Shown here: one piece after another, positions 26,289 to 55,653 of the stretch | How the letters are laid out: each line of letters opens with the position of its first letter | Numbering within the stretch: position 1 is the stretch's first letter | NCBI RefSeq assembly: GCF_003334335.1 | Contig: NZ_QOWQ01000001.1 | DNA: 64,000 nt | Reading direction: 5' to 3' (one strand) | Origin: Escherichia coli | Lineage (GTDB): Bacteria > Pseudomonadota > Gammaproteobacteria > Enterobacterales > Enterobacteriaceae | Notes under the pieces: model-generated | What the model saw: the letters and a program-made list of their open reading frames with translations, nothing else | What the model was told of the DNA's origin: nothing | Database searches by the model: none | Program-made: the position numbers and the translations under genes

Positions 26289-27386
26289 ATGAAAGGACGT
26301 TGGGTAAAGTACCTTCTTATGGGCACGGTTGTGGCAATGCTTGCCGCCTGCTCTTCCAAACCAACCGATCGCGGACAGCAATATAAAGACGGGAAATTTA
26401 CCCAGCCTTTCTCTCTGGTGAACCAGCCAGATGCCGTTGGCGCGCCGATTAACGCCGGTGATTTTGCCGAGCAAATTAACCATATCCGTAATTCGTCACC
26501 GCGTCTGTATGGCAACCAGAGTAATGTTTATAACGCGGTGCAAGAGTGGCTGCGCGCAGGCGGTGATACCCGCAATATGCGCCAGTTCGGCATTGATGCC
26601 TGGCAGATGGAAGGTGCCGACAACTATGGTAACGTGCAGTTTACCGGTTATTACACGCCGGTAATTCAGGCGCGCCATACCCGCCAGGGCGAGTTCCAGT
26701 ATCCTATTTACCGTATGCCGCCAAAACGTGGTCGTCTGCCGTCTCGTGCGGAGATCTACGCGGGGGCATTGAGTGATAAATATATTCTCGCTTACAGTAA
26801 CTCCCTGATGGATAACTTCATTATGGATGTGCAGGGTAGTGGGTATATCGACTTTGGTGATGGCAGTCCGCTTAACTTTTTCAGCTATGCAGGGAAAAAC
26901 GGTCATGCCTATCGCAGCATTGGTAAGGTGCTGATCGACCGTGGCGAAGTGAAAAAAGAAGATATGTCGATGCAGGCGATTCGTCACTGGGGCGAAACAC
27001 ACAGTGAAGCCGAGGTTCGCGAGCTGCTGGAACAGAACCCGTCTTTCGTCTTCTTTAAACCGCAATCTTTTGCTCCGGTGAAAGGGGCAAGTGCGGTGCC
27101 GCTGGTTGGTCGCGCGTCAGTTGCCTCTGATCGTTCCATTATTCCGCCAGGTACTACCTTGCTGGCAGAAGTGCCGTTGCTGGATAATAACGGCAAATTT
27201 AATGGTCAGTACGAACTGCGTCTGATGGTGGCGCTGGATGTCGGTGGTGCAATCAAAGGCCAACACTTCGATATCTATCAAGGGATCGGGCCGGAAGCCG
27301 GACACCGCGCAGGTTGGTACAACCACTATGGACGTGTCTGGGTGCTGAAAACCGCCCCGGGCGCAGGTAACGTCTTTAGCGGCTGA
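26289..27386 (+). CDS. mltA: Membrane-bound lytic murein transglycosylase A (MltA)
   Basis: 365-aa lipoprotein from ATG 26289 (lipobox LAAC); the track ORF extends spuriously upstream through the tRNA. Confidence 0.9.
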   Translation: MKGRWVKYLLMGTVVAMLAACSSKPTDRGQQYKDGKFTQPFSLVNQPDAVGAPINAGDFAEQINHIRNSSPRLYGNQSNVYNAVQEWLRAGGDTRNMRQFGIDAWQMEGADNYGNVQFTGYYTPVIQARHTRQGEFQYPIYRMPPKRGRLPSRAEIYAGALSDKYILAYSNSLMDNFIMDVQGSGYIDFGDGSPLNFFSYAGKNGHAYRSIGKVLIDRGEVKKEDMSMQAIRHWGETHSEAEVRELLEQNPSFVFFKPQSFAPVKGASAVPLVGRASVASDRSIIPPGTTLLAEVPLLDNNGKFNGQYELRLMVALDVGGAIKGQHFDIYQGIGPEAGHRAGWYNHYGRVWVLKTAPGAGNVFSG

Positions 27387-27474
27387 TGTGATATTCTGTA
27401 TGCCGTTTTTACGGATATGACAGGGTGAGGGGTAACCTCACATCCTGATTATTGACTAAGTGCGCGTTGTTCAT

Positions 27475-27571
27475 GCCGGATGCGGCGTGAACGCCTTATC
27501 CGGCCTACAAATCATGCAAATCCAAAATATTGCAGGAGTTATGTAGGCCTGATAAGCGTAGCGCATCAGGC
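27475..27571. repeat. BIME: two REP palindromic units in opposite orientation
   Basis: GCCGGATGCGGCGTGAACGCCTTATCCGGCCTAC at 27475..27508 and GTAGGCCTGATAAGCGTAGCGCATCAGGC at 27543..27571. Confidence 0.6.
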
Positions 27572-27624
27572 ATTTATGCGTTTAGGGTGAGGGATAACCT
27601 CGCCCTTTTTAATTCTGAGGTGCT

Positions 27625-28431
27625 ATGTCTGTGGTAATTAGTGATGCATGGCGTCAGCGTTTTGGTGGCACAGCGCGTCTGTATGGTGAAAAAGCGTTGC
27701 AACTGTTTGCTGACGCGCATATTTGTGTGGTTGGTATCGGTGGTGTCGGTTCCTGGGCGGCGGAAGCGCTGGCGCGCACGGGGATTGGCGCAATCACGCT
27801 TATCGATATGGATGATGTGTGCGTCACCAATACCAATCGGCAAATTCATGCCCTGCGCGATAACGTTGGGCTGGCAAAAGCGGAAGTTATGGCGGAGCGT
27901 ATTCGCCAGATTAACCCGGAGTGCCGTGTAACGGTGGTGGATGATTTCGTGACGCCGGATAACGTAGCGCAGTATATGAGCGTGGGTTATTCGTACGTGA
28001 TTGATGCCATTGATAGTGTACGGCCCAAAGCGGCGCTGATTGCTTATTGTCGGCGCAATAAAATCCCACTGGTCACAACCGGTGGCGCGGGTGGGCAGAT
28101 TGATCCGACGCAGATTCAGGTTACCGATCTGGCGAAAACGATTCAGGACCCGCTGGCGGCGAAGTTGCGCGAGCGCCTGAAAAGCGATTTTGGCGTAGTG
28201 AAAAACAGTAAAGGTAAGCTCGGCGTGGATTGCGTGTTTTCTACTGAAGCGCTGGTGTACCCGCAGTCAGACGGTACGGTGTGTGCGATGAAAGCCACGG
28301 CAGAAGGGCCGAAGCGGATGGATTGTGCATCTGGATTTGGCGCGGCAACGATGGTGACCGCCACCTTTGGGTTTGTTGCGGTTTCTCATGCGCTGAAGAA
28401 GATGATGGCGAAAGCGGCGCGTCAGGGTTAA
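27625..28431 (+). CDS. tcdA: tRNA threonylcarbamoyladenosine dehydratase TcdA (CsdL)
   Basis: 268-aa ORF with ThiF/MoeB-type nucleotide-binding motif (VVGIGGVGSWAAEALARTG). Confidence 0.9.
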   Translation: MSVVISDAWRQRFGGTARLYGEKALQLFADAHICVVGIGGVGSWAAEALARTGIGAITLIDMDDVCVTNTNRQIHALRDNVGLAKAEVMAERIRQINPECRVTVVDDFVTPDNVAQYMSVGYSYVIDAIDSVRPKAALIAYCRRNKIPLVTTGGAGGQIDPTQIQVTDLAKTIQDPLAAKLRERLKSDFGVVKNSKGKLGVDCVFSTEALVYPQSDGTVCAMKATAEGPKRMDCASGFGAATMVTATFGFVAVSHALKKMMAKAARQG

Positions 28432-28438
28432 ACAATCA

Positions 28439-28470
28439 GGTCGGATGAGACGCGAACGTCTTATCCGACC
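28439..28470. repeat. REP-like palindrome between convergent tcdA and csdE
   Basis: GGTCGGATGAGACG / CGTCTTATCCGACC inverted repeat with one mismatch. Confidence 0.45.
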
Positions 28471-55422: not shown

Positions 55423-55545
55423 GACAGAAAACCAAAACCGGCTCTATCTGGAGCCGGTTTGAGACTGATGCTAAACGCAAAATAGCCTGTTGTGCTATGT
55501 ATCAGGTCTACATCATTTTTTAATTCATTGAATTTAATTGGTTTT

Positions 55546-55580
55546 GTAGGCCGGATAAGGCGTTAACGCCGCATCCGGCA
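55546..55580. repeat. REP element between convergent gudD and barA
   Basis: GTAGGCCGGATAAGGCGTTAACGCCGCATCCGGCA. Confidence 0.5.
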
Positions 55581-55653
55581 TAAACACAGGCACTTTGTCA
55601 CCAATCTGAAACCAGCGTCATAAAAAGCCGATTGCTACTCGACAAGACATCCA

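Follow-up and report, generated by a model that had tools for sequence, protein, structure and literature searches.

Duplicated Terminator Hairpins around a BIME-1 Element between mltA and tcdA in Escherichia coli, and a Related Footprint at Other BIME-1 Loci

Organization of the mltA-tcdA Spacer

The window, i.e., the whole 64-kb stretch of Escherichia coli DNA analysed here, carries on its plus strand the gene of murein transglycosylase A, mltA, at positions 26289..27386. This open reading frame corresponds to RefSeq mltA (1098 nt, identical region) and ends at 27386 with the stop codon TGA (27384-27386). On the same strand, tcdA occupies 27625-28431 according to both the open reading frame and the RefSeq annotation, and is preceded by the Shine-Dalgarno sequence GAGGTG at 27617-27622. 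A promoter scan of the spacer between the two genes revealed no sites.

The first-pass annotation placed in this spacer two REP units bracketed by near-identical 17-bp direct repeats. Direct reading of the sequence supports this description: GGGTGAGGGGTAACCTC at 27423-27439 and GGGTGAGGGATAACCTC at 27585-27601 differ by a single mismatch, and the REP units at 27475..27508 and 27543..27571 agree in placement with the inverted-repeat search. The repeat pair gains one base leftward (A at 27422 and 27584), which gives the 18-nt pair AGGGTGAGGGGTAACCTC (27422-27439) and AGGGTGAGGGATAACCTC (27584-27601) with a start-to-start spacing of 162 bp and the REP doublet in between. With two mismatches, the repeat extends to 20 nt (27422-27441 versus 27584-27603). 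The degenerate 17-mer, searched with at most three mismatches, was found at two sites in the whole window, with 0.14 expected by chance; two matches were obtained in none of 100 shuffled windows.

Both repeats are parts of hairpins on the plus strand. The left copy, AGGGTGAGGGGTAACCTCAC (27422..27441), had already been described as a small hairpin GTGAGG/CCTCAC, and this structure folds at -14.7 kcal/mol. Its stem is cut down to these two arms, the T-tract is absent, and the segment aligns to the single hairpin of the empty site. It is followed by the bases ATC (27442..27444), belonging to neither hairpin copy nor BIME-1 consensus, and by a BIME-1 element of the RIP type (27445..27583), recognized by similarity to the fepA-entD BIME-1 and by family alignment. 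The right copy, A GGGTGAGG GATAA CCTCGCCC TTTTT, occupies 27584..27610 and includes the duplicated segment (27584-27603) and the T-run (27606-27610); the terminator scan matched 27584-27606, to which the T-run is added. The longer hairpin GGGTGAGG/CCTCGCCC of this copy, with a folding energy of -17.2 kcal/mol and TTTTT after it, was missing from the first-pass annotation. The RNA of the spacer (27387-27612) is predicted to form one long hairpin (-93.5 kcal/mol, z -6.3), where the 5' arm of the left copy pairs with the 3' arm of the right copy and BIME-1 is enclosed.

The Inserted Element

The insert consists, on the plus strand, of the left flank motif CTGATTATTGACTAAGTGCGCGTTGTTCAT (27445-27474), the Y REP (27475-27508; stem 27475-27504), a long linker (27509-27542), the Z1 REP (27543-27571; stem 27542-27573) and a truncated right flank motif ATTTATGCGTTT (27572-27583). 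In the genomes lacking the insert, it is the fepA-entD spacer that matches 27440-27585 best, with 89-90% identity over 27447-27583. This similarity takes in both REPs together with about 30 nt to the left and 12 nt to the right of them. Alignment of the insert with 16 other BIME-1 copies showed that the family has well-defined ends, (T)CAGATTGTTGACAAAGTGCGC ... GCGTTTGTCATCAGTCTC(A), which form imperfect terminal inverted repeats, (T)CAGATTGTTGACAAAG and GAGACTGATGACAAAC. The Y and Z1 REPs are in inverted orientation, are complementary to each other and are near-identical to those of the 16 other copies. The linker aligns with the family as well and matches the Rfam family ES036/CssrF with 46.5 bits, above the gathering score of 37.6; it contains a putative IHF core, one base off the consensus as judged by eye. 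Judging from its sequence, the insert is more than two REPs: it is a whole element of the BIME-1 (RIP/RIB) class with its flank motifs, the right one truncated. In the window, it is present as a single unit and is extragenic, lying between the mltA stop and the tcdA start.

The ends of the mltA copy deviate from the consensus. The left end, CTGATT, is one change away from the left motif CAGATTGTTGACAAAGTGCGC, and the right end stops at GCGTTT, the final 12 nt of the consensus, GTCATCAGTCTC, being absent. In Escherichia sp. E1V33, the left junction reads CCTCACC/TC/CTGATT.

In the Rfam scan of the spacer, the 17-mer had no match; the only families found were the 'sRNA' families modelling the BIME-1 linker (ES036/CssrF) and the REPs (naRNA4). 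The latter, naRNA4/CssrE, matches REPs below its gathering score (Rfam matches at window positions 27469-27550 and 28426-28470). Annotated 'sRNA' matches of the ES036/CssrF and naRNA4/CssrE type should be read as BIME sequence.

A second BIME-1 of the window is located in the barA-gudD spacer on the minus strand (55473..55608) and has the full-length ends CAGATTGG...AGCATCAGTCTC. It is accompanied by a strong terminator hairpin on the right and a merely degenerate one on the left. This copy, to which the mltA element was compared, is fixed in 5,206 of 5,426 genomes and therefore gives no empty site.

The Predicted Terminator Hairpin of mltA

Lying downstream of a stop codon, the right copy is built like an intrinsic terminator, with a stem of 8-9 bp, six G-C pairs, a 5-nt loop and TTTTT. 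Its fold (-17.2 kcal/mol) has a z score of -4.8, and the terminator scan detected it as well. The left copy does not have this form, since ATCCTGATT follows the hairpin where the T-tract would be. The right-copy hairpin with its T-run is the sole hairpin of the empty-site alleles and of the other genera, and the hairpin is kept across four genera. The T-tract, the stem-loop and the position after mltA all point to the repeated unit being the predicted Rho-independent (intrinsic) terminator hairpin of mltA, the right copy likely being the working terminator. The suggestion of a structured RNA at the mltA 3' end, made in the first-pass annotation, holds insofar as the unit is this terminator hairpin.

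Several features of the terminator itself can be mentioned. Its 17-mer is identical in Escherichia, Enterobacter, Citrobacter and Salmonella (window 27584-27622; L017, L024, L039, L044) despite the diverged rest of the spacer, which is unusual for a terminator. The 3' arm CCTC(A/G)CCC is complementary to the tcdA Shine-Dalgarno sequence TGAGG located about 12 nt downstream and might also influence tcdA translation. In Salmonella enterica subsp. diarizonae (L044, reverse strand ~3425-3455), another perfect palindrome, GTCCGATAACGAGAGCGTTATCGGAC, lies directly upstream of the single mltA terminator; Escherichia has no counterpart at this site.

Filled and Empty Alleles between mltA and tcdA

A 501-bp spacer probe was run against 5,426 complete E. 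coli genomes. The full spacer was present in 2,752 of them, and in the other 2,674 it was exactly 162 bp shorter, the match spanning 339 bp. Short alleles, such as those of UTI89, O104:H4, WP4 and strain 20, contain one copy, ACAGGGTGAGGG[G/A]TAACCTC[A/G]CCCTTTTTAATTC. In the aligned alleles, it is a perfect hairpin plus TTTTT, and the spacer is otherwise empty between mltA and tcdA. A 40-nt empty-site probe matched the 5,426 genomes at one place in the short alleles, at two places in the full alleles and nowhere else; a few genomes had 3-4 hairpin copies.

The 17-mer was also scanned in a collection of one genome per species, which yielded 44 loci. About 34 of them come from unrelated taxa, no more than chance would yield in a collection this large. 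All ten matches in enterobacteria were located in the mltA-tcdA spacer. Enterobacter asburiae, E. soli, Citrobacter sedlakii and Salmonella enterica subsp. diarizonae have one hairpin and no BIME there; E. albertii, Escherichia sp. E1V33, E. coli E69 and E. coli SCPM-O-B-8794 have the hairpin-BIME-hairpin arrangement with common junctions. Neither the 5,426 E. coli genomes nor the nine other enterobacterial genomes contained both copies of the 17-mer without the BIME. Since the 17-mer is single without BIME, double with BIME and found nowhere else in the E. coli genomes, it is a local sequence and not a dispersed repeat. Of the origins considered in the first-pass annotation, duplication on insertion is borne out: in relatives and strains lacking the BIME, the empty site holds exactly one 17-mer. 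No support was obtained for a composite repeat class, the 17-mer being confined to the mltA-tcdA spacer in five Escherichia genomes and four other enterobacterial genera.

In E. albertii (L011, reverse strand ~3490-3525), the left copy has diverged to AGAGTGAGAAATAATCTCGCTCT while keeping an 8-bp stem via paired changes, and the left end of BIME-1 lacks about 14 nt. An identical 17-mer occurs in Bacillaceae (Halalkalibacter, Alkalihalobacillus and Bacillus sp. PS06; L010, L012, L030, L036, L037, L052) where it again forms part of a terminator-like hairpin, AAAAGGGTGAGGGATAACCTCTCCCTTTTT, following the conserved end of a gene. The likeness is apparently convergent and bears no relation to the enterobacterial locus.

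Proposed History, Loss and Amplification

The relationship between the alleles was followed by distances over the first 420 nt of tcdA. Full and short E. coli alleles differ from the window by 4-14 nt and are intermixed; among themselves, E. coli alleles differ by 4-24 nt. The deeper Escherichia lineages, at 22-41 differences from the window (20-44 overall), all possess the full allele or an array, and the other genera (Citrobacter and Salmonella), at 79-80 differences from the window (74-85 overall), possess the single hairpin. The simplest history consistent with these distances would be a single event of insertion and duplication close to the base of Escherichia, followed by secondary precise losses within E. 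coli. The empty E. coli alleles at this locus are then probably revertants, and polymorphism within E. coli therefore gives no direction of the event. Three variants of the short allele were found: GGGG..CACCC, GGGA..CACCC and GGGA..CGCCC. Each of them could be derived from known full alleles via exchange within the repeat.

Direct repeats around a 140-bp near-palindrome would be expected to be unstable, and it is to this flanking that both precise loss and amplification can be attributed. Slippage or recombination between the direct repeats would remove BIME-1 precisely and produce the short alleles carried by about half of E. coli, and unequal exchange would amplify the 162-bp unit. In Escherichia sp. 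MOD1-EC7003, a tandem array of this unit is present (L041 13901-14685, at the contig end), with further units at the end of the L040 contig; Tandem Repeats Finder (TRF) gave a period of 162, 4.8 copies and 96% matches. The array in this strain, possibly the outcome of such unequal exchange, thus comprises at least 4.8 copies.

The copies of the MOD1-EC7003 array differ from one another by SNPs. In the same strain (L040, reverse strand ~10315-10508), the first terminator copy is interrupted by a further, unrelated insert of ~195 bp, so another element has also struck the mltA hairpin. The insert is AT-rich, has the ends CAGGG...CCCTG and a 10-11-bp flanking repeat, GTGAGGGATA, and had no matches in the 5,426 E. 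coli genomes.

Hairpin Duplication at Other BIME-1 Loci

A metagenome scan with the left-flank/Y-REP pattern yielded 120 loci. These were re-searched with the consensus and pooled with the window and E. coli loci, which resulted in 20 distinct BIME-1 loci; an earlier version of the flank test used 17. In this test, 45 nt to the left of the element were aligned to the right-side sequence, and all 380 mismatched locus pairs served as the null (mean score 11.5, 99th percentile 19). The left and right flanks of eight of the 20 loci scored 21-35, each at p <= 0.003. Own-locus flanks aligned better than mismatched ones, with a Mann-Whitney p=0.0016, and the binomial p for eight of 20 at the 1% level was about 1e-11. 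The matched flank segments are locus-specific hairpins. A stable hairpin adjoins the left end of BIME-1 at 13 of the 20 loci and the right end at 11, and four loci have neither. Flank duplication was not significant at the remaining 12 loci, which implies decay of the extra copy or else another way of inserting. A scan of viral contigs for further BIME-1 copies gave one locus.

Filled and empty alleles could be compared at five further BIME-1 loci, which show, as mltA-tcdA does, the pattern of a target-site duplication, with one copy in the empty allele and two direct copies in the filled one. At yqjF-yqjG (filled in 78 of 5,426 genomes), the empty site is AAAAAACGAGGRGGAAGCTCCTCGTTTTTGC and the filled one reads ...CCTCGTTT/CAGATTG...CAGTCTC/AAACGAGGAGAAACGCTCCTCGTTTTTGC, with a duplication of 25 bp. 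The rlmC-artJ site (filled in 3,192/5,426) is AAAAAAGCCGCAGGTGCGGCTTTCTG when empty and has AAGCCGCnnnnGCGGCTT on both sides when filled, an 18-bp duplication. About 25 bp are duplicated at ccmH-narP (1,505/5,426 filled; empty site GGCCCGATGGTGATGCCATCGGGCTATTTTT) and ~27-29 bp at uidC-ydgA (1,751/5,426 filled; empty site AACGCCGGAGAGAAAAACCTCCGGCGTTTTGG). At mscK-rsmS (3,881/5,426 filled), the empty allele contains one (diverged) hairpin and the filled allele two. The duplication lengths over the six loci, 18, ~20-21, ~21, 25, ~25 and ~27-29 bp, track the size of the hairpin and have no fixed value.

The positions of the junctions are also similar. Outside the G+C core of the stem, their left/right offsets are 3/3 at yqjF-yqjG, 2/2 at rlmC-artJ, 1/1 at ccmH-narP and ~3/3 at uidC-ydgA, i.e., equal offsets of 1-3 nt on both sides at four of the six loci. 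At these four, the left copy retains the A-run and one to three T's; in the right copy, the T-run is complete and between one and four A's are left. The mltA copy departs from this pattern, with a left junction that falls within the stem by 1-2 nt.

At uidC-ydgA (L105; empty alleles L184 and L185), the left 3' arm CCTCCGCG and the right 5' arm CGCGGAG are each one base short in comparison with the empty site. The two one-base losses are complementary to each other; pairing of the inner arms, or templating between them, may be involved. The metagenome locus L159 (~1700-1900) has two tandem BIME-1 copies parted by a single hairpin (GAGGCCGCTTTCTCAGCGGCCTC then directly CAGATTATTGACAAG); the order hairpin-BIME-hairpin-BIME resembles the mltA array, but the hairpins on the two sides are different.

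Inverted duplication was considered as well. It was rejected at mltA-tcdA, where the direct score was 31 versus 13 for the inverted one, and was likewise rejected at mscK-rsmS and yqjF-yqjG. It is possible at the pgm locus only (a non-E. coli contig), where the two loops are in opposite orientation; the left flank of pgm is rearranged between strains and is uninformative.

Origin of the Duplicated Hairpin

The ancestral spacer contained one hairpin and TTTTT directly upstream of the tcdA ribosome-binding site. In Escherichia, BIME-1 adjoins the 3' foot of the mltA stem, and the whole stem-loop (20-21 bp) is found on both sides, the T-tract being lost from the left copy and retained by the right one. 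The most probable explanation, to which a probability of roughly 80% can be assigned, is that the 17-mers are two copies of the mltA terminator hairpin and that BIME-1 entered at the feet of the stem, duplicating the hairpin, with precise loss and amplification taking place afterwards. Such an insertion would have shifted mltA termination 162 bp downstream, so that BIME-1 would now be part of the mltA 3' UTR.

Insertion of this kind may proceed as follows. Each DNA strand would be opened a few bases 3' of its own hairpin copy, either in an extruded cruciform or in single-stranded DNA. BIME-1 would then be joined between the two staggered cuts, and gap filling or repair synthesis would copy the hairpin. 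As candidate enzymes, TnpA-REP/RAYT, a Y1 nuclease associated with REPs, and structure-specific nucleases of the host can be named. The cutting step is inferred from the footprints. Of the simple schemes considered, staggered opening alone would give both equal offsets and a structure-dependent length of the duplication.

A broader proposal, offered tentatively and at somewhat less than even odds, is that BIME-1 in general spreads by structure-directed insertion, with both strands opened at the feet of terminator hairpins or cruciforms and the size of the duplication (18-29 bp) set by the target structure, not by an enzyme. The pattern would in this case be the first general genomic footprint of REP/BIME mobility, not described previously. 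If true, this would account for the presence of BIME-1 at gene 3' ends, for termination surviving the insertion and for frequent precise loss and amplification. One terminator hairpin would be expected before the insertion and two after it, with the junctions at the stem feet, and loss would restore the terminator exactly; new insertions are predicted at terminator hairpins, with two cuts 3' of the stem, one per strand. Since the T-tract is retained downstream, BIME-1 could sit in 3' UTRs and leave termination intact. For annotation, paired "terminators" around a BIME-1 would have to be read as one terminator and its relic.

Template switching is the main rival, and an improbable one. According to it, a nascent strand that had stalled once the terminator hairpin was copied took up BIME-1 as template at another locus, returned upstream of the hairpin and copied the hairpin again. 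Hairpins and near-palindromes such as BIME-1 are structures of the kind that stall replication forks, which suits this copy-choice scheme, as does the predicted folding of the entire spacer into a single long hairpin (-93.5 kcal/mol, z -6.3). At uidC-ydgA, the inner arms carry complementary deletions of 1 nt that resemble template-switch corrections, and the ragged ends of the mltA copy could be understood in the same way. However, junctions lie 0-3 nt from the stem feet at six loci with unrelated hairpins, with equal offsets at four of the six. Furthermore, microhomology between the BIME-1 ends and the targets is absent, and most loci share the BIME-1 ends CAGATT...CAGTCTC, which random switching would not produce.

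It could also be supposed that the terminator was doubled first and that BIME-1 was later inserted between the copies without duplicating anything. Such an order of events would suit the lack of target duplication in IS200/IS605-like systems, but it has no direct support: no BIME-less hairpin-hairpin allele was seen in the 5,426 E. coli and nine other enterobacterial genomes, and the same coincidence would be needed independently at no fewer than eight loci with different hairpins. Prior tandem duplication is therefore very unlikely. Still less credence can be given to the two last alternatives. That hairpins often flank BIME-1 copies could suggest a dispersed composite, with the 17-mer as part of a larger hairpin-plus-BIME unit at many loci; yet the flanking hairpins vary by locus and equal the local empty-site hairpin, and in Enterobacteriaceae the 17-mer is confined to the mltA-tcdA spacer. 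Two independent hairpins kept by selection as terminators or RNA-stability elements, alike for reasons other than common descent, would agree with the left copy holding its stem in all lineages (8 bp via paired changes in E. albertii) but can practically be dismissed, given an 18-position alignment with one mismatch, loop included, that goes beyond convergence, empty sites with one copy and a left copy without the T-tract.

Comparison with Known Systems

REP and BIME sequences account for about 1% of the E. coli genome, and K-12 has about 70-80 copies of BIME-1. BIME-1 of E. coli, also called RIP or RIB, consists of a Y REP, a long L linker with an IHF site and a Z1 REP and is about 140 bp long. 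The mltA-tcdA insert is similar to it in aligning end to end, in its 3' UTR site and in its presence or absence among strains, and differs in lacking the final 12 nt of the consensus. Presence/absence of BIME-1 among strains has already been reported (PMC1187871), and Bachellier et al. 1997, as cited there, refer to 'excisions of a whole BIME-1'. The surveyed literature (among others PMC1187871, PMC3333891, PMC2817692, PMC8266576 and Di Nocera et al. 2013) treats BIME-1 polymorphism as presence/absence or 'excision' and makes no mention of a duplicated target hairpin; a prior description of the duplicated-hairpin footprint, e.g., in Bachellier et al. 1997 (Genetics 145:551), is possible. REP dimers inside longer palindromes were described in other species by Di Nocera et al. 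2013; that arrangement is related, not the same.

In papers up to 2021, the mechanism of REP/BIME dissemination is called still unknown (PMC8266576). In vitro, TnpA-REP is a hairpin-binding enzyme that cleaves single-stranded DNA close to the hairpin feet (PMC3333891, PMC8266576). The IS200/IS605-type Y1 transposases, to which TnpA-REP is related, are reported to produce no target duplications or flanking direct repeats (PMC3333891, PMC2817692). As a REP doublet, BIME-1 is of the type for which mobilization by TnpA-REP has been proposed, in which it resembles the REPIN-RAYT (REPtron) systems. Unlike REPIN-RAYT and IS200/IS605 elements, BIME-1 loci show an 18-29-bp duplication (eight of 20), and the target is a terminator hairpin, not a REP.

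The locus resembles those of MITEs and classical transposons in its flanking direct repeats, the single copy at the empty site and the imperfect terminal inverted repeats of BIME-1. In classical target-site duplications, the transposase dictates one short length, typically 2-14 bp, whereas the BIME-1 duplication is 18-29 bp long, variable and equal to the target stem-loop. In the precise excision of Tn10 and Tn5, slipped mispairing takes place between 9-bp target duplications and is stimulated by inverted repeats. Here, too, a long inverted repeat lies between direct repeats, and its loss would re-create the target exactly, as the short mltA-tcdA alleles suggest. The mltA-tcdA repeats differ in being longer and hairpins themselves, and the process is deduced from population data. 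Bacterial class C group II introns home to intrinsic terminators, insert via RNA and are not known to duplicate the hairpin. BIME-1 shares with them insertion immediately 3' of the terminator stem, within the T-tract; unlike these introns, it has no coding capacity, and the hairpin is duplicated. In kind, the mltA-tcdA locus is an ordinary BIME-1 polymorphism, and it is the recurring footprint that is informative on the unsolved mechanism.
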